This document shows, one piece after another, positions 56,374-63,390 of a DNA stretch of 64,000 nucleotides. Where the stretch lies: contig OZ244034.1 in the NCBI GenBank assembly GCA_965215185.1, positions 2,592,001 to 2,656,000 on the forward strand, read 5' to 3'. The first letter of the stretch is position 1. The number at the start of each line of letters is the position of its first letter. The translations under genes and the position numbers were made by a program. The DNA comes from Acidimicrobiia bacterium. GTDB taxonomy: Bacteria; Actinomycetota; Acidimicrobiia; Spongiisociales; ZC4RG35. The notes beneath the pieces are model-generated. The model worked only from the letters and a program-made list of their open reading frames with translations, ran no database searches and had not been told where the DNA came from.

Positions 56374-57409
56374 CCTCGCGGAACTCGAAGGCTTTGATGA
56401 TCTCTTGCTCCGATGACCAGTTGCCGGTGATCAGAAGCCCGATGCGCTCACCAGGGATCGATTCTCCAAAGCGTTCCAGTGCCGCGATTGGTGAAGCTGC
56501 GGCACCCTCCAGCGCCATCCCTGTGCAGAAGAGTGCCAGCGCCATAGCTCGGTAAAGGTCATCTTCCTGGACGAGTGCGATCGTATCGAGGTACTCGATC
56601 ATCACTGCCAGGGCCAACTCTCCGGGACGCGTAGTAGCCAGGCCGCCAGCGAACGTCAGACACTCGGACTCGACTATCTCTCCACCGAGCCAGCTCTGGG
56701 TTGCTCCACTGGCTGCCGTCGATTGCACACCAATAATCCCGGTTTTTGATCGGCGAAGCTCGCAGGCCAGCAATGACCCTGCGATCAGATTGCCACCTCC
56801 GATGGGCGCGATAACAGTGTCCAGATCGGAGTCGGATTCGAGAATCTCCAAGAGCACTGTTGAAGCTCCTGCCATCAGGTCGCCACTTTCACCATCCTCA
56901 ATGTATGAAATGCCATTGCCCGCGATTCCAGCAGCGGCCTGTTGGGCTTGCCCGAGGTGTTCACCTTCGATGCGAATCTCGGCCCCGAGACCGCGCATCG
57001 CTTGGAGCTTCTCCTTAGCGGTGCCTTCCGGTGCATAGACCACTGTCTTGAGACCGTAAAGAGAGGCGGCGAACGCGACACCCTGTCCGTGATTGCCCGT
57101 CGAAGCTGTTACTACCGTGTGAGCTCCCGATTCCTCGGATATCCGACGGAGGGCAACGAGGGCTCCCCGGTGCTTGAACGAGCGGATGGGGGAAGCAAAC
57201 TCGAGCTTCATGTAGATCTGGCGACCGTAGCGAGCAGAAAGCGACTGTGATAGCACAAGGGGAGTGGGCCGCTGGTGACTGCCAATCACCATCTCGGCAA
57301 CTCTCAACTCTTCCGGCTGTGGAACCGGGGAGTCGGGCCACGTTCTGGAGATCGGCCGTCTGTGATAGGTACCAGGACCACGATTCTTCGATGACGGTCC
57401 CATGCTCAC
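56357..57409 (-). CDS. Fold-type II PLP enzyme (threonine dehydratase/serine racemase family)
   Basis: KLE...SFK.RG, ASTGNHG, PIGGGNL; exact start uncertain. Confidence 0.85.
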   Translation of the reverse strand: MSMGPSSKNRGPGTYHRRPISRTWPDSPVPQPEELRVAEMVIGSHQRPTPLVLSQSLSARYGRQIYMKLEFASPIRSFKHRGALVALRRISEESGAHTVVTASTGNHGQGVAFAASLYGLKTVVYAPEGTAKEKLQAMRGLGAEIRIEGEHLGQAQQAAAGIAGNGISYIEDGESGDLMAGASTVLLEILESDSDLDTVIAPIGGGNLIAGSLLACELRRSKTGIIGVQSTAASGATQSWLGGEIVESECLTFAGGLATTRPGELALAVMIEYLDTIALVQEDDLYRAMALALFCTGMALEGAAASPIAALERFGESIPGERIGLLITGNWSSEQEIIKAFEFREDANRD

Positions 57410-58632
57410 CGGCGCGTGGCGGCTAGGACGGACAGGACGTGGTCGATGTCGGCGGTGGTGTGGTCGGCGTTGACTTGGAGGCGGATTTCTTCGTGGCCTC
57501 TGGGTACTACGGGATAGGTGAGGCCGGTTGCCAGGACGCCACTGTTAAAGAGGGCCGTGACCATTCGGCGGGTCTGGTTGGTGTCGCGTAGCATGAGGGG
57601 GACGATGGGGTGCTCACCGGGTATGATCTGGTATCCCAGCGCTACCAGGTTGGACTCGAGCCGGCGAGTGAGGTGTCTCAGCTGGCCTAGGAGCGTCTGC
57701 CCTTCGGGACTGTCCAGTATTCGTAGGGCGGTAAGGGCGGCGCTTGCTTCGGCGGCGGTGATCGGGTTGGAGTAGATGTAGAAGGGGGAGGTCTCCCGCA
57801 GGAAACGGATGACCGTGCTTGCAGAGACCACGTATCCTCCGTTGACTGCCAGGGCCTTTCCCAGGGTGCCGATGAGTATGTCGGCGGGCGGGCTGCCCGT
57901 GTGTTCTTCGGTGCCCCGGCCGGTGGGGCCGAAGGCGCCCACTCCGTGCGAGTCGTCTACGACCACCACCACGTTTTCGGGGAAGCTGTGATCGTGGCGA
58001 CGGGCGATGTCCATGATCTGGTCCAGTGGAGCGTGGTCTCCGCGCATGGAGAAGATGCCGTCGGTCACGACTATCGCCCGTTTTGCCCGCCCGGCCGCCT
58101 CGGCAAGTTGATGATCAAGAGCCGCCATGTCCAGATGCGGGTAGACGGACTTGCTTAGAGGCCGGGCGAGGCGGATGGCGTTGATTATGGAGTTGTGGTT
58201 GAGTTCGTCGGAGATCACTGTGGTGGTCGGGTCGATGAGGGAAACCAGGGTTCCTAGCACGGCGGCGTAGGCGGAGGAGAAGATCATCCCTTCCTCTCGC
58301 CCGTGGAAGGCGGCCAAGCCATGCTCCAGTTTCACATGGGGAGTGTGGGTCCCCACGATGAACCGCACCCCTCCGGGTCCGGTTCCCATCGCCCGGGCGG
58401 TGACCTGTTGAGCCCGGATCACTTCGGGATGCAACGCCAACCCCAGGTAGGAGTTGGAGTTCATCCGGATGAAAGCACGGTTCCCGTGGCCCTCAAGCAA
58501 GTATCTGGGGCCTCGCTCCCTCTCGGGACCGACGACCTGTCTTACCACCAGTTCCCCGCCCTTGGCCATCCCCTGTTCATCAAGGCGGGTGACATGGCGG
58601 TCAAGTTCATCGATCAATCGGTCCAGCGGCAT
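57406..58632 (-). CDS. Alpha-oxoamine synthase, probably 2-amino-3-ketobutyrate CoA ligase (Kbl-like)
   Basis: SNSYLGL, VRFI.GT, SDELNH.SII, DG.FSM.G, DDSH, GTLGKA. Confidence 0.85.
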   Translation of the reverse strand: MPLDRLIDELDRHVTRLDEQGMAKGGELVVRQVVGPERERGPRYLLEGHGNRAFIRMNSNSYLGLALHPEVIRAQQVTARAMGTGPGGVRFIVGTHTPHVKLEHGLAAFHGREEGMIFSSAYAAVLGTLVSLIDPTTTVISDELNHNSIINAIRLARPLSKSVYPHLDMAALDHQLAEAAGRAKRAIVVTDGIFSMRGDHAPLDQIMDIARRHDHSFPENVVVVVDDSHGVGAFGPTGRGTEEHTGSPPADILIGTLGKALAVNGGYVVSASTVIRFLRETSPFYIYSNPITAAEASAALTALRILDSPEGQTLLGQLRHLTRRLESNLVALGYQIIPGEHPIVPLMLRDTNQTRRMVTALFNSGVLATGLTYPVVPRGHEEIRLQVNADHTTADIDHVLSVLAATRR

Positions 58633-58739
58633 TCAAAGCCTCGTGGTAGTAAACCCTTTCAAATGTTATAGGCGTTGGCCGAAAATTCCGGGCCTCCAAA
58701 AAACGTGTATCGCGCCTGTATCTTGGCTTCCGTGCCTGG

Positions 58740-58845
58740 GATTGTCTTCTCAGAAGCCCTGGGCGATGCACCATTTCATGACCGCGGCGGTGCGCTGTTT
58801 GACACGGTGGGCGGTTTCAGGTTCTGGTGCCAGATAGGGGTGGGA
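58740..58845 (-). pseudogene. Fragment of a second, diverged integrase copy
   Basis: PETAHRVKQRTAAVMKWCIAQGF vs PETARRVKQRIAAVMKWCIAQGF in 59558-60769. Confidence 0.8.
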
Positions 58846-58861
58846 AACGGCTCTAACGCTC

Positions 58862-59100
58862 GGCCCAATAGGGCAACTGCTACCACTACGCGATGTCCTG
58901 GAAATCACAAGCCTCAAGAAATCGCAACTGTACCGGCTAATGGCAGCTGGGGAGTTCCCAAAACCGCCCAAGATAGGATTCCGAACAGTCCGCTGGACTC
59001 TCGATTCGATCCTGGCCTGGGTCGAGAATCTGCCAGAGGCAACTTACACCAGCCCACCAGAAGACGAGGAACCGACACCCCACGGGACGAGACCAATGGT
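58862..59100 (+). pseudogene. AlpA-family regulator/excisionase, start codon lost
   Basis: The frame upstream of ATG 58940 reads LLPLRDVLEITSLKKSQLYRLMAAGEFPKPPKIGFRTVRW; in-frame TAG at 58835; 3' end uncertain. Confidence 0.75.
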
Positions 59101-59557
59101 GTCTAACCACACGCCAGCCGACCAAAACCAGCGCCCTCCAAACCGGATAGTGCCCACCTCCTGCAAGAGAGAAAGAACCTGCCCCCACCCGCACCGCTCC
59201 AGCACTGAAGTGCAGGGCGGCCTCTGTGTCCGGTCGTGTCACGTTAGTTGGCCGACTGGTGTCATTAGTGCCTTGCCTGTCGTTTTGCGACTCCCATACG
59301 GTTTGAAACATCATCAACACCGTGTTCATCTCCCCAATGGCTACTGCCCACTTTGACGGTTTGTCTTTTGTCGCTCTGATCATTTTGCCAAATTGAGTCG
59401 CCCCGGTTTTGTAGAGGGTTGGTTGTGAACAGCCCTGGGTGTCGAAGCTGTTAGGAAGAGTCGCCTTTTAGCGATCCCGATGACCCAACCTCTTTTGTTC
59501 CTTGACACAGCATCATCCTTGGGAGGCCGATTACCCGCGAGGGTGTTCCACGGCCTT

Positions 59558-60769
59558 CTACAACGTGCTACCAATCGAGCTGTCTGTCCCAATCGGTGCC
59601 ATGAAAAGGATTGAGGCTTCGCGGATGTTTAGGTAGCGGCTCCAGTTTTCCATCAGTTGGCGGCGTCTTTCCAGTAGGTCGGTTCGAGCGTAGGCTTTTT
59701 CTACAGCGTTTCGGATTTCGTGACCGAGGGCCCGTTCCGCGACTTCACGGCTAACACCGGTTTCTCCGCACCAGTCCCGAAACGAGCTTCTCATCCCGTG
59801 TGGCACACAACCCACATTGTTCTCTTTGCACAGTTTGCTCATAGTGGCGTTACTAGGCGGCCGTCCGGTAGGCGAGGGAAAAACCAGGCCATCCCCGCCG
59901 GACAGTTGGTGTGCGGTGTGGAGAACCGCCAGAGCCCCGCTGCTCAAAGGCACCCGGTGTATTTGCTGTGTTTTGGTGTGCTCGGCAGGGATTGTCCAGG
60001 TTGCTGTGGTGAGATCAATTTCTGTCCATGTGGCGTGTCTGACTTCACCGCTTCTGGTGGCGGTAAGGGTCAGGAATTTGAAAGCGGCGATCGTCGCCCA
60101 ATGGGCATCTGTTGTTTCGACGGTTCGAATGGCTGCGCCGACCTGGCTGTGGGGTAGGGCCTTCATGTGTTGGGGTCGTTGGGTGTTGGAACCTAGGGCG
60201 GCGGTGATACGGTCGTCGGCTGGGTTGTTCTCTCGGAACCCCTGGGCGATGCACCATTTCATCACCGCGGCGATCCGCTGTTTCACCCGGCGGGCCGTTT
60301 CGGGTTTTGGGTGCCATATGGGGGTGAGACAAGCCATGACGTTGGCGGTCGTGATTAGGTCCACCCGCCTTTTCCCAAGGTGAGGATAGGCATAGGTGTG
60401 GAGGGTTGACCGCCAGTGCTCTTCGGACCTGCCACCCGGTTTCCACTTGGCGGCGTGAAGCCGGATTACCTGTTCGGTCGCCTGGCGAAAGGTAGGTGCC
60501 TTGCGGGGGCGGGGGTTGCGGCCTTCTGCGATGGCTTGTCGGTTCCGGAGAGCCCGCCGGCGGGCTTCGGCGAGGGTGACTGCCGGGTAGCTACCCAGCC
60601 CCAGGTTGGTGTATCTGCCGTTGATCTGGTTTCGTTGCGCCCAGGTTTTGGAGAGTCGCCCCTGGATGTTGGTTGGTTTGACCAACAGGCTCAGTCCATG
60701 GCCGCCTCGGCCGTTGCCATAGCGTCCGGGTTGGGTCACTGTCCTAACGAAAGATGCTGTGAGTGTTGG
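59558..60769 (-). CDS. P4-like tyrosine integrase, interrupted after codon 4 by IS110 (first codons at 62040-62051)
   Basis: N-terminal arm-binding region (GLSLLV...LG.YP.VTLAEAR); catalytic R(SGE), K, HGMR, LGH, Y all present. Confidence 0.9.
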   Translation of the reverse strand, partial: PTLTASFVRTVTQPGRYGNGRGGHGLSLLVKPTNIQGRLSKTWAQRNQINGRYTNLGLGSYPAVTLAEARRRALRNRQAIAEGRNPRPRKAPTFRQATEQVIRLHAAKWKPGGRSEEHWRSTLHTYAYPHLGKRRVDLITTANVMACLTPIWHPKPETARRVKQRIAAVMKWCIAQGFRENNPADDRITAALGSNTQRPQHMKALPHSQVGAAIRTVETTDAHWATIAAFKFLTLTATRSGEVRHATWTEIDLTTATWTIPAEHTKTQQIHRVPLSSGALAVLHTAHQLSGGDGLVFPSPTGRPPSNATMSKLCKENNVGCVPHGMRSSFRDWCGETGVSREVAERALGHEIRNAVEKAYARTDLLERRRQLMENWSRYLNIREASILFMAPIGTDSSIGSTL

Positions 60770-60776
60770 TGAGCTC

Positions 60777-61805
60777 CTATGTCAAAATCGGGGTTGGTTT
60801 TGGTGGTTGGAGGTGGGTCCAGATGCGGTCTGAGATTCGGCGTTTGAGGACGCGTATGGCGTCTCTGTGGGTCTTTCCTCGGGTGATGAGTTTCTGGTAG
60901 TAGCGGCGGCCTTCGCTGTCTGCGCGGGCGATCTGGGTCAAAGCGGCGGTGTGGATGGCCCGGTTTAGTTGGCGGTTCCCACCCCGGTTGAGTCGATGGC
61001 GTACTACTCGTCCGCTGCTGGCTTCGATGGGTGCGGTGCCGTTGGCCATGGCGAACTTGTCTTTGGTCGCATAGCGGTGTGGGTTGCCCACCTCCGAAAG
61101 GATGGTGGCAGCGACCAGTACACCCACCCCGTGAATGTCTAGTAGACGGGTTTCGGATTGGTCGACCAGTGTTTTGATCTCGGCGGTGAGTTGTTTGATC
61201 TCGGTGTCCAGTTGTCGCAGTCTTCGGATGCGTTGTTTGGCTACCCGCCCGTGGGGGGTGGTGTCCCGCCAACACAGTTTCATGGCCTGGTCGAGGGCTT
61301 TTCGGGTGGTGAGCCGGGGAATGTTCTGGTGGTAGCCTGGTCGGAGTTTCCCCAGGTCGGCGTGGAGCCGGTTGGCCTGGGCGGTGCGGTCTTCTACCAG
61401 TTCACGGCGGTATGAGACCAGCACACGGAGGTCTTCGGTGTCCTCCCAAAACGTCGGCGGGGCGAGCGTGTTGTCTCGGAGAGCGACCCTGGCGATCACC
61501 CAAGCGTCGACCTGGTCGGTTTTGGTCTGGGTACGGCCCCGGCGCCGGACCTGGGCGGTCAGCTGCGGTGGAACCTCCCGGATGTCCAGACCAGCGGCCA
61601 TAGCGGCGACCGCGGCTGGGCGGCCGAACGTGCCGGACCCCTCGACCGCTACCCTGGCGGCGTTGGTGGTGTGAGCCCAATCTATGAGTTGACGGTGACC
61701 AGTAGGGGTGTTAGCGATGGTCCGGTACTCCAGGGCGGTGCCCAGGTGGTCTACCAAACAGGCAGAAAGGGTATCCTTGTGCGAGTCGATCCCGATAACG
61801 AACAT
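60777..61805 (-). CDS. IS110-family DEDD recombinase/transposase
   Basis: GID, VEG, KTDQVD (DEDD), ASSG catalytic serine, GGNRQL. Confidence 0.95.
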   Translation of the reverse strand: MFVIGIDSHKDTLSACLVDHLGTALEYRTIANTPTGHRQLIDWAHTTNAARVAVEGSGTFGRPAAVAAMAAGLDIREVPPQLTAQVRRRGRTQTKTDQVDAWVIARVALRDNTLAPPTFWEDTEDLRVLVSYRRELVEDRTAQANRLHADLGKLRPGYHQNIPRLTTRKALDQAMKLCWRDTTPHGRVAKQRIRRLRQLDTEIKQLTAEIKTLVDQSETRLLDIHGVGVLVAATILSEVGNPHRYATKDKFAMANGTAPIEASSGRVVRHRLNRGGNRQLNRAIHTAALTQIARADSEGRRYYQKLITRGKTHRDAIRVLKRRISDRIWTHLQPPKPTPILT

Positions 61806-61848
61806 GGTTCAATCCTCCAATTTCGGGGGTTTGCGGGAGCGGCAGAAG

Positions 61849-62017
61849 GCTCGGCGAAGCGCATCCATGCGTCGAAACAACACCCCCACAGGGGGCAGAT
61901 ACAAGTCACGCTCCTATCAAGCGACAACACCGAGCGGGCAACCGGTGGGGAGACACTCACTAACTAAGCCACCACAATGGGGCAGGGTCGTTTGGAGTCA
62001 TCCCCACCGGCACTGCC
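61849..62017 (-). ncRNA. Predicted IS110 bridge RNA
   Basis: Two stem-enclosed internal loops (ccggtgggga/tccccaccgg; gctcgg/ccgagc) containing matches to target and donor sequences. Confidence 0.8.
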
Positions 62018-62159
62018 ACACCCCAACATATAACACGCATGGTCGTTTCACCCCTGCTTCTCCCTTTCGGCTAACCCAGAGAAGGTCCGGTACCGCCGAT
62101 TACTCCGATGGGTTACTTCGATAGTTATCAACATTGCAATGCGATTAGGTGCAACCCTA

Positions 62160-62250
62160 TGGGACTGTCTGGAACTACCTGGGACACCAATACCCCGTTG
62201 ACCTGGGCAAATATGAACCACATGGGACACTATGCGCCTATATAGGACAC
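62160..62250. repeat. Phased short direct repeats at the island end (candidate integrase/Xis binding sites)
   Basis: tgggact 62160, tggaact 62170, tgggacac 62180, tgggacac 62223, taggacac 62243. Confidence 0.55.
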
Positions 62251-62262
62251 TAAACCCGCGGA

Positions 62263-62772
62263 CGTCCAGGTAAGGCAACCCTTCCTGCCAGAAGTTCTCG
62301 TTGCGTACGATTTCAACCTGCTGGTTGCGTTCCCATTCCACGAACTTGAAGGGACCGGTTCCGATCGGCGTCTCGTTCAGGTCGATGTCGGGATCCCGCG
62401 GCGAGATGTACACATCCACCAGGGTGCTGGCCAGGATGCGGTCGGGCTCGCCGAGTCGGATCTCCACGGTCATGTCATCGACCGCTACGGTCCCGACTAC
62501 CCGGGTCAGGAGAGAAGATGTCCGTCCAGACTCAGGCTCCTGCGCCCTGCCCATGGATACCACCACGTCTTCGGCGCCAAAGGGAGAACCGTCGTGGAAG
62601 GTCACGCCTTCCCGGAGGTTAAAGGTCCAGGTGGTGGCCAGCGAGGGAGACGGTCCAGGTGGTGGCCAGCGAGGGAACTATCTCATAGGTCTCCAGGTCG
62701 AACTCCACCAGGGTGTCATACATGTTGGTGATGATGTTGCGGTCGTTAGTCGAACCGAATCGGTTGGGATGC
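62263..62772 (-). pseudogene. Family-5 SBP, N-terminal half (signal peptide missing, internal frameshift)
   Basis: MYDTLV...PSLA..W...F.LREGVTFHDG...GTGPFK...GLPYLD. Confidence 0.85.
62624..62676. repeat. 25-bp direct repeat with 28-bp period
   Basis: ggtccaggtggtggccagcgaggga at 62624 and 62652. Confidence 0.9.
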
Positions 62773-63390
62773 AGTACCTACCAGTCGCTGCAGGTCATCG
62801 CCGACGCCCAAGCAGACGGCGCCGAACCGTTTGATTTGATGATCTGCGACGTAGCCCATCGAACCACCGGGGTTCATAAGAAAGCCCGGATCACGGTGTC
62901 TTCGTGGTTGTTGCCCCACGACCAGACGATTCTCCAAGCCGACCGGCGGCTGTACATGACCGCCACGCCTCGGCTTTACAGCGCCAATGTCAAAGAAAAA
63001 GCCAAAGAGCGGCAGGCGGCTATCTATTCGATGGACAACGAAGCCACCTACGGGCCTGAGATTTACAAGATGAGCTTCAAAAAAGCCGTAGACGACGGTT
63101 TCTTGTCGGACTATGAAGTAGCCGTCGTCGCGGTGTCTGACAGTCTGTTCGCCAATCTGGCGGGCGACTTTGTCTAGGAGCATGAAGAAACCGGGGTGAA
63201 CGTCGAGGATGTGGTGAAACTCCTCGGGTGTTGGGACGCTCTGGCCGATCCCGACCACCCGTGGCACGAATGGTCGGGTCACCGGGCAGGTCAACACTCC
63301 CCACGCCGCCCAGCGGGCCATCGCCTTCTCCAACACCATCAAGAGTTCGATGAATTTGGAGAAGTGGTGGCCGGACATCATCAGCCGACT
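62773..63390 (+). pseudogene. Fragment of SF2 helicase of Type ISP restriction-modification type
   Basis: STYQS, DL.ICDVAHRTTG (DEAH degenerate), YMTATP, SMD...YG, LSDY; stop at 63175 and later frameshifts. Confidence 0.72.

Follow-up and report, generated by a model that had tools for sequence, protein, structure and literature searches.

IS621 and the IS110 group are the closest described systems to the insertion sequence (IS) studied here. As set out in sections of PMC11208160, the bridge RNA has two loops. The 5' block of each loop equals the top strand left of the crossover, core included, and the 3' block complements the core together with the sequence to its right. Pairing of the left guide involves 8-9 nt of the bottom strand, the core among them, and that of the right guide 4-7 nt of the top strand. 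In this study, we analysed a 64,000-nt stretch of an Acidimicrobiia bacterium genome (assembly GCA_965215185.1, contig OZ244034.1, positions 2,592,001 to 2,656,000; hereafter the window), which lies within a single 3.12-Mb contig and carries an IS after codon 4 of an integrase gene. We consider it probable that this is an active, bridge RNA-guided IS110-group element whose repeat-type target has drifted, and that it hit 14-mers in integrase genes via slipped guide pairing.

Several guided IS have fixed targets. ISPa11 and ISPpu10 target repetitive extragenic palindromic (REP) or stem-loop repeats (parts of PMC11187229 and 10.64898/2026.03.19.712850). In the IS1111 family, ISKpn4 and ISPst6 target integron attC sites (parts of PMC11187229), and IS4321 and IS5075 target the terminal repeats of Tn21-family transposons, according to a reference title in PMC11187229. 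Parts of the same paper describe natural redirection of seekRNA or bridge RNA between close relatives, namely ISEc11 versus ISXne4 and ISEc21 versus ISMch6. An IS110 element aimed at the start of an integrase gene was not found in the best-matching titles and abstract openings; such targets may nevertheless stand in the target tables of PMC11208160 and PMC11187229.

Anatomy of the IS and its insertion site

The features of the interrupted gene and the IS are as follows (window coordinates).

62052..62266, minus strand: about 215 nt upstream of the integrase, 92% identical with paralogs; similarity ends at 62266 (BLAST of the IS-less region against the genome)
62040..62051, minus strand: integrase codons 1-4 (GTG AAA CGA CCA), same start in paralogs; 62041-62040 is the left copy of the CA core
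60772..62039, minus strand: IS110-family IS, 1268 bp, CA-flanked, no terminal inverted repeats on reading the ends by eye (no repeat search was made)
61806..62039, minus strand: left end, non-coding, 234 nt, predicted bridge RNA gene (alignment and consensus fold of 11 distinct left ends)
61985..61993, minus strand: predicted left target guide (LTG) AAACGACCC, variable among related left ends and co-varying with the left flank
61958..61964, minus strand: predicted right target guide (RTG) GTTAGTG, complement of CA+CTAAC
61910..61917, minus strand: predicted left donor guide ATAGGAGC, same as the last bases of the right end (..ATAGGAGC-T-CA); motif found twice
61866..61872, minus strand: predicted right donor guide ACGCATG, complement of CA+TGCGT (core and first 5 nt of the left end)
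60777..61805, minus strand: transposase/recombinase, 342 aa, DEDD and Transposase_20 domains
60780..60785, minus strand: TTGACA in the right end, read from the sequence
59558..60771, minus strand: right copy of the CA core (60771-60770) and integrase codons 5 to end, an open frame

On the minus strand, the integrase start GTG AAA CGA CCA (62051..62040) is followed by the IS (62039..60772). On the 3' side of the IS, a second CA (60771..60770) precedes CCA ACA CTC, which continues in the integrase frame. A sequence-only reading of this DNA had placed the IS after codon 4, and this was borne out, with the CA dinucleotide at both ends. It had also proposed that precise removal restores the frame. 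Removal of the IS and one CA in silico gave MKRPPTLTASFVRTVTQPGRY, and the IS-less join was the open frame VKRPPTLTASFVRTVTQPGRYGNG (locus L055; V is the GTG start), or VKRPPTLTASFVRTVTQPGRY in a longer reading. A paralog (genome 896904-897033) runs uninterrupted across the same point (...GGGGTGAGACGACCACCAACACTC...), in agreement with that proposal. In the interrupted state, the native start is followed by 17 codons and then a stop within the IS, as read from the sequence, and the longest open reading frame of the integrase remainder begins at an internal GTG (60739), which is codon 16.

The transposase matched PF01548 (E 6.2e-31), the N-terminal DEDD (RuvC-like) domain, and PF02371 (E 1.8e-20), the C-terminal Transposase_20 domain. 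Its score against NF033542, 'IS110 family RNA-guided transposase', was 210.8 bits with a cut-off of 140. The transposase stop codon lies 5 nt from the right end of the IS. CA was present at both junctions in 3/3 genome copies and in related elements. Of the IS110-group traits, we found the recombinase domains, the non-coding left end, the 2-nt core, co-varying target guides and donor guides. These results indicate that the element is an IS110-group bridge RNA IS, a new relative within a known family, and recently active.

In comparison with the IS621/IS110 group as described in sections of PMC11208160, the element is alike in its DEDD and Transposase_20 recombinase, in the long non-coding left end upstream of the gene, and in two loops whose left guide equals the top strand and whose right guide is complementary. 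The dinucleotide core at both junctions is also alike, as would be a putative right-end -35 box that would meet a left-end -10-like box only in a circle. However, the core here is CA and not CT as in IS621, and the left guide here pairs with 8 flank bases and the first core base only. The family was assigned by an NCBIfam model and not by identity to IS621, and the left end had no match in Rfam. Two of the three natural sites here need a skipped guide base.

About 20 further genome loci matched the transposase at 30-49% identity, mostly 30-37% (tblastn), and are probably other IS110-family transposases, judging from this similarity. Several of them cluster near 372-375 kb, 978-981 kb and 2340-2345 kb.

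Three identical copies in the genome

The genome holds three copies of the IS, which are pairwise identical at 1268/1268 positions. The one in the window is called copy 1. Copy 2 (genome 984061-985328) interrupts another integrase paralog, again after codon 4 and at the identical nucleotide. Copy 3 (genome 1647194-1648461) lies in a degenerate copy of a palindromic repeat, a non-integrase site. The IS is co-oriented with the integrase at both integrase sites. The flanks of copies 1 and 2 are identical for 27 and 26 bases directly beside the IS, with 4 and 1 differences within the first 50 nt on either side and about 8-12% difference further out. Since the flanks have diverged and the IS copies are identical, the insertion occurred later than the divergence of the paralogs.

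Two occupied paralogs need not mean two guided insertions. A single guided insertion could have been passed to the second paralog by homologous recombination or gene conversion via the conserved flanks, in which case finding the IS twice at this codon would not count as two independent signs of targeting. The stretches of identity beside the IS, with about 88-92% identity further out, would suit such a transfer, and paralogous integrase segments and recent duplications abound in this genome. However, the first flank differences appear no more than 28 nt from the IS on either side, whereas the IS copies are fully identical; a conversion tract would have to end nearly at the IS. In addition, copy 3 at an unrelated site indicates recent transposition. 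We regard conversion as an unlikely source of the second copy.

A predicted bridge RNA with variable target guides

The target would be chosen by a bridge RNA encoded in the 234-nt left end. A left-end pattern search found 22 copies of the IS clade in 8/17 genomes of the genus, and the related left ends were 86-95% identical. The main differences fell in the two target-guide blocks of the first internal loop and in the hairpin between them, which varies by compensatory substitutions. In the consensus fold, an outer stem pairs 62013-62019 with 61839-61845, and a target-loop stem pairs 62001-62010 with 61942-61953 and closes a large internal loop. In the second loop, ATAGGAGC equals the end of the right end, and ACGCATG complements CA and the first five bases of the left end. 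The donor guides match the join of right end and left end and are invariant among relatives, so they show no covariation.

The target loop was readable in 18/22 copies; L039, L052, L053 and L059 were omitted as remnants or as too diverged. L039 (G008) and L041 (G011) each consist of an isolated piece of the left end, 47-59 nt long, that no transposase follows; they are left over from decayed or rearranged copies.

The guides fit the integrase site out of register

We compared the guides with the flanks of the readable elements. The 9-nt left guide equalled the 8 flank bases and the core C at 6-9 of 9 positions in 16/18 elements. The mean in-register match of the left guide was 7.33 for cognate pairs versus 5.55 for pairs with a different guide. 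In the register of 16 relatives, this variant specifies AAACGACC-CA-CTAAC, a target of 15 nt. The sequence-only reading had rightly picked the LTG (61985-61993) and the RTG (61958-61964), but in a register one base short; the target it gave, AAACGAC-CA-CTAAC (14 nt), has one C fewer than the target in the relatives' register.

The site of copy 3, AAATGACC-CA-CTAAC, matched this target at 14/15 positions in register, with the right guide matching at 7/7. The integrase site, GAAACGAC-CA-CCAAC, matched at 9/15 (left 4/9, right 6/7). In-register pairing was tried as the cause of the integrase insertions and rejected: 8361 CA-core sites in the genome have an in-register fit equal to or better than that of the integrase site, and in-register pairing therefore cannot explain two insertions at one nucleotide. 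When one C of the CCC run in the guide was skipped, the left guide matched at 8/8 and the whole site at 13/14. The 14-mer paired in this way is AAACGAC-CA-CCAAC, which covers integrase codons 2-7 of one subgroup. The earlier statement that the guides essentially match the integrase 5' end is thus correct only with a 1-nt skip and one further mismatch. Skip scores of the other 16 elements were at most 7/8, and at most 5 in 15 of them; none of these elements needs a skip. Position 4 of the left guide is C, which matches the integrase site and mismatches the repeat site.

Occupancy at the integrase starts followed match quality. Both exact genomic copies of the integrase 14-mer are occupied by the IS, and three integrase starts that are one mismatch worse under the skip model (GAGACGACCACCAAC, AAACGACCATCAAC and AAACGACCAGCAAC) are empty. 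Across the genome, just one unoccupied site equals the integrase 14-mer under the skip model. These results suggest that the guides chose the integrase site through out-of-register pairing.

We then considered whether the guide match could be coincidental, with untargeted or half-match off-target insertions, or an assembly artefact, behind the pattern. The poor in-register left pairing at the integrase site (4/9) would fit this, and half-match off-target insertion is reported for IS621 in a preprint abstract. However, a 14-mer with at most one mismatch is expected by chance about once per genome (43/4^14 x 6.2 million positions), and both insertions lie exactly there, in the right orientation and at CA. 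Contigs of run X1, possibly the source data of the assembly, bridge both IS junctions and speak against an artefact. Coincidence or artefact is highly improbable on these grounds.

Several points weigh against slipped pairing by a bridge RNA. One equally good site under the skip model (genome 776744) is free of the IS. The second integrase copy could stem from gene conversion, as a tract of at most 27 nt per side is compatible with the flanks. Covariation in the predicted RNA stems is thin, with compensatory change in 3/51 pairs among these close relatives. A search of 58500-63000 with Rfam 15 at E up to 1 gave 0 matches, and it is uncertain whether Rfam holds a bridge RNA model. The word 'bulge' was not mentioned in the bridge-recombinase papers listed by a literature search, its sole mention among the papers listed being in prime assembly work.

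With these points weighed, slipped pairing remains the reading we favour. In this mechanism, the target loop would have diverged from those of the nearest relatives, whose commonest target resembles an arm of a palindromic repeat of about 65 nt. The best site in the genome for the new guides would be the degenerate repeat copy that now holds copy 3. The same guides could pair with AAACGAC-CA-CCAAC, leaving one C of the CCC run unpaired and tolerating one mismatch on the right side, and both genomic copies of this integrase-subgroup 14-mer would have been hit in this way. The insertion separates the integrase from its start codon and ribosome-binding site, presumably inactivating it. It also brings the genes for the bridge RNA and the transposase, in sense orientation, into line after the integrase upstream region, where read-through could transcribe them.

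Like ISEc11/ISXne4 and ISEc21/ISMch6 in the cited parts of PMC11187229, the elements here are close relatives (86-95% identical) whose guides differ and whose sites differ correspondingly, a compact case of guide drift. They differ from those pairs in that the most frequent site of the new guide is matched only out of register.

The usual target of the clade resembles a palindromic repeat arm

The commonest flank among the relatives was CAAAnTGAAC-CA-CTACC, which resembles an arm of the palindromic repeat. This repeat of about 65 nt (GGTAGTGGTTCAGTTTG ... CAAACTGAACCACTACC) is represented by 12 arms in the genome by a strict motif, none of them in the window. The repeats lie at the following positions.

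Locus L001 (G000:C1:1645694-1649961): palindromic repeats
Genome 1308111, 1600613, 1644042 and 1644356: palindromic repeats
Genome 1658787/1658818, 1669269, 1961856/1961887 and 2002669/2002700: palindromic repeats, continued

An inverted partner was found at most 100 nt upstream in 5/22 insertions, copy 3 included. At the two integrase sites, no inverted partner was found within 100 nt upstream. An occupied site in genome G014 has flanks identical to the empty repeat at genome 1669269. The clade is thus like ISPa11 and ISPpu10 (cited in part above) in its repeat-arm-like motif and in the location of copy 3 in a repeat, whereas the two integrase sites are coding and lack the inverted partner in that range. 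In a separate observation, a 95%-identical relative of the IS (L045, G017:C1:282773-285796) lies in a short perfect palindrome, 55 nt past the stop codon of an integrase homologue.

The sequence-only reading had proposed that the IS may be programmed against a multicopy integrase family, hitch-hiking on the island while disabling it, and that it could also switch island mobility reversibly. In that case, the target loop would have been selected for the 5' end of multicopy integrases. Two of the three copies do lie after codon 4 of two paralogs, with both exact 14-mers occupied, and the C at position 4 of the left guide favours the integrase over the repeat site. However, the in-register fit is better at a non-integrase site (14/15 versus 9/15), and the commonest target of the clade is repeat-like. 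Of the 19 other clade copies in the genus, not one is inserted at the start of an integrase gene (0/19). The recurrence check proposed with the claim was answered in part: the IS recurs at codon 4 in two paralogs, but only 2 of at least 12 integrase loci in this genome carry the exact 14-mer site. In the 17 genomes of the genus, the integrase-start pattern with at most 2 mismatches was found at 7 places in 4 genomes and never exactly, and the exact site is absent from the 16 other genomes. The exact IS-less integrase start gave 0 matches in metagenome_contigs and genome_contigs, and so did the target-loop variant; records of the own genome were possibly excluded from both collections. The integrase association consists of two sites in one genome.

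ISKpn4, ISPst6, IS4321 and IS5075, as described in the parts of PMC11187229 cited above, are alike in being guided IS at one fixed position in the recombination machinery of another element. Those elements, however, are IS1111-group members whose RNA lies downstream of the gene; they strike recombination sites where the IS here strikes a recombinase gene, and show a general association with the target element, compared with two sites in one genome here. For an IS dedicated to another mobile element, as IS5075 and ISKpn4 are, one would expect most copies in the target element, a guide fit in register and a general site; here two of three copies lie in an integrase gene, but the site is not general and the fit is out of register.

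The integrase family and the search for an island and for excision

The integrase remainder of 393 aa matched Arm-DNA-bind_3 (PF13356), Phage_int_M (PF22022) and Phage_integrase (PF00589), consistent with a P4-like tyrosine integrase. The motifs TRSGE, HRVPL, HGMRSSFRDW, GHEIRN and EKAYAR all occur in it, and four intact paralogs conserve them; we take them to hold the catalytic R-K-H-R-H-Y residues of tyrosine recombinases. The earlier claim of intact catalytic residues stands as far as these motifs go. A PDB sequence search with the integrase gave fragments of the arm-binding and central domains only, with no match to the catalytic domain.

That the family is multicopy was confirmed by tblastn against the genome, with 12 loci in which at least 339/393 residues aligned at 34-100% identity, plus many fragments. 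The three closest members of the family are all broken. In the window integrase (copy 1), the IS is the sole lesion and the 393-aa frame is otherwise open. The copy 2 integrase (genome 982914-984028) carries the IS and a frameshift after 269 residues and is a pseudogene. The closest empty paralog (genome 895816-896985) is a pseudogene in whose frame a stop occurs at residue 162. Intact frames (385-393 aa) remain in four paralogs that are less closely related. Integrase genes and fragments are concentrated at genome 859-985 kb.

We looked for the boundaries of an island by paralog similarity, neighbouring genes and a tRNA scan, and none were found. Paralog similarity is confined to 59582-62266, the integrase gene and 215 nt upstream (BLAST against the genome). 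The genes below the integrase (below 58632) are metabolic, namely an aminotransferase, a pyridoxal phosphate (PLP) enzyme, amidohydrolases and a peptide ABC transporter. No tRNA was found in the window, and hence no tRNA-type attachment site. The upstream region at 62052..62266 may be the location of a promoter or an attachment site. With no island delimited, the hitch-hiking proposal found no support.

The proposed reversible switch would work through scarless excision. We searched the contigs of four runs (X1, X5, X6 and X7) for an empty site and for the circle junction, the checks proposed with the claim. X5, X6 and X7 each had one contig with a joint skipping 60770-62039, and X1 had none. 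These contigs, from three studies, have 90% likeness and may represent the uninterrupted paralog or other strains; at this likeness, the joints are no evidence of excision at the window locus. No locus-specific empty site was found, and no circle junction was seen, in contigs, which lose rare forms. According to the abstracts of recent papers, excision of IS110 elements is less efficient than their insertion, or proceeds by copy-out with the donor copy kept.

Selection of the guides for integrases, with riding, disabling and switching of integrative elements, is thus also weighed against by the lack of a delimited island and of a circle junction, and by the decay of copy 2 and of the nearest empty paralog, genes that are decaying anyway. 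On its side, the remainder of the window integrase is still open over its 393 aa, and the co-oriented integrase upstream region could drive an IS that has no promoter-like site inside it in the integrated state. We assign this scenario a low probability. The results argue weakly for a programme against integrases and do not support a reversible switch, though the window integrase frame is still open.

Proposed expression of the bridge RNA

A promoter scan of 59400-62400 in the integrated state found no sigma-70-like site. In a circle, a 17-nt spacer would separate TTGACA (60780-60785) from the TATATG (62027-62032) downstream of it in the left end, and TTGACA-17 nt-TATATG is a putative junction promoter, as judged from its boxes. 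TATATG lacks the final T demanded by the promoter scan. Because the IS is co-oriented with the integrase at both sites and no sigma-70-like site lies inside it, bridge RNA in the integrated state would most likely come from read-through that starts in the integrase upstream region.

Implications of the proposed slipped pairing

The slip in left-guide pairing is the most interesting point of this locus; the wider claims of an anti-integrase programme and of a switch are unsupported by our tests. Bridge recombinases are in development as programmable genome editors, and off-target prediction assumes gap-free pairing of guide and target. Here, two of the three natural insertions fit only with a skipped guide base, with thousands of better in-register sites untouched. 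If slipped pairing is true, off-target searches would need to allow bulges. With this locus, a recombinase gene from another mobile element also joins the fixed targets of IS110/IS1111 elements.

It is possible, though rather doubtful, that the bridge RNA is midway in a redirection from the palindromic repeat to the first codons of the integrase via one bulged RNA base. If such a redirection is true, the IS would be transcribed from the integrase promoter and carried by integrative elements, which it would at the same time freeze in place. It would then be a guided parasite of other mobile elements, and bridge recombinases would accept bulged left-guide pairing in nature.

Neighbouring sequences

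Other duplicated sequences were observed around the interrupted integrase. Just downstream of it, window 58738-58860 (minus strand) is a remnant of another integrase paralog, covering about residues 133-173 at 68% identity. Window 57839-59480 is 99.7% identical to genome 1271186-1272827, and a partial integrase (88%) follows at both. Window 57408-58737 is 97% identical to genome 2742738-2744067. These two duplications may be shared cargo of one integrative-element family. On the other side, amid the gene fragments at 62048-63200, window 62618-62675 contains a tandem duplication of about 27 nt (GGTCCAGGTGGTGGCCAGCGAGGGA twice).

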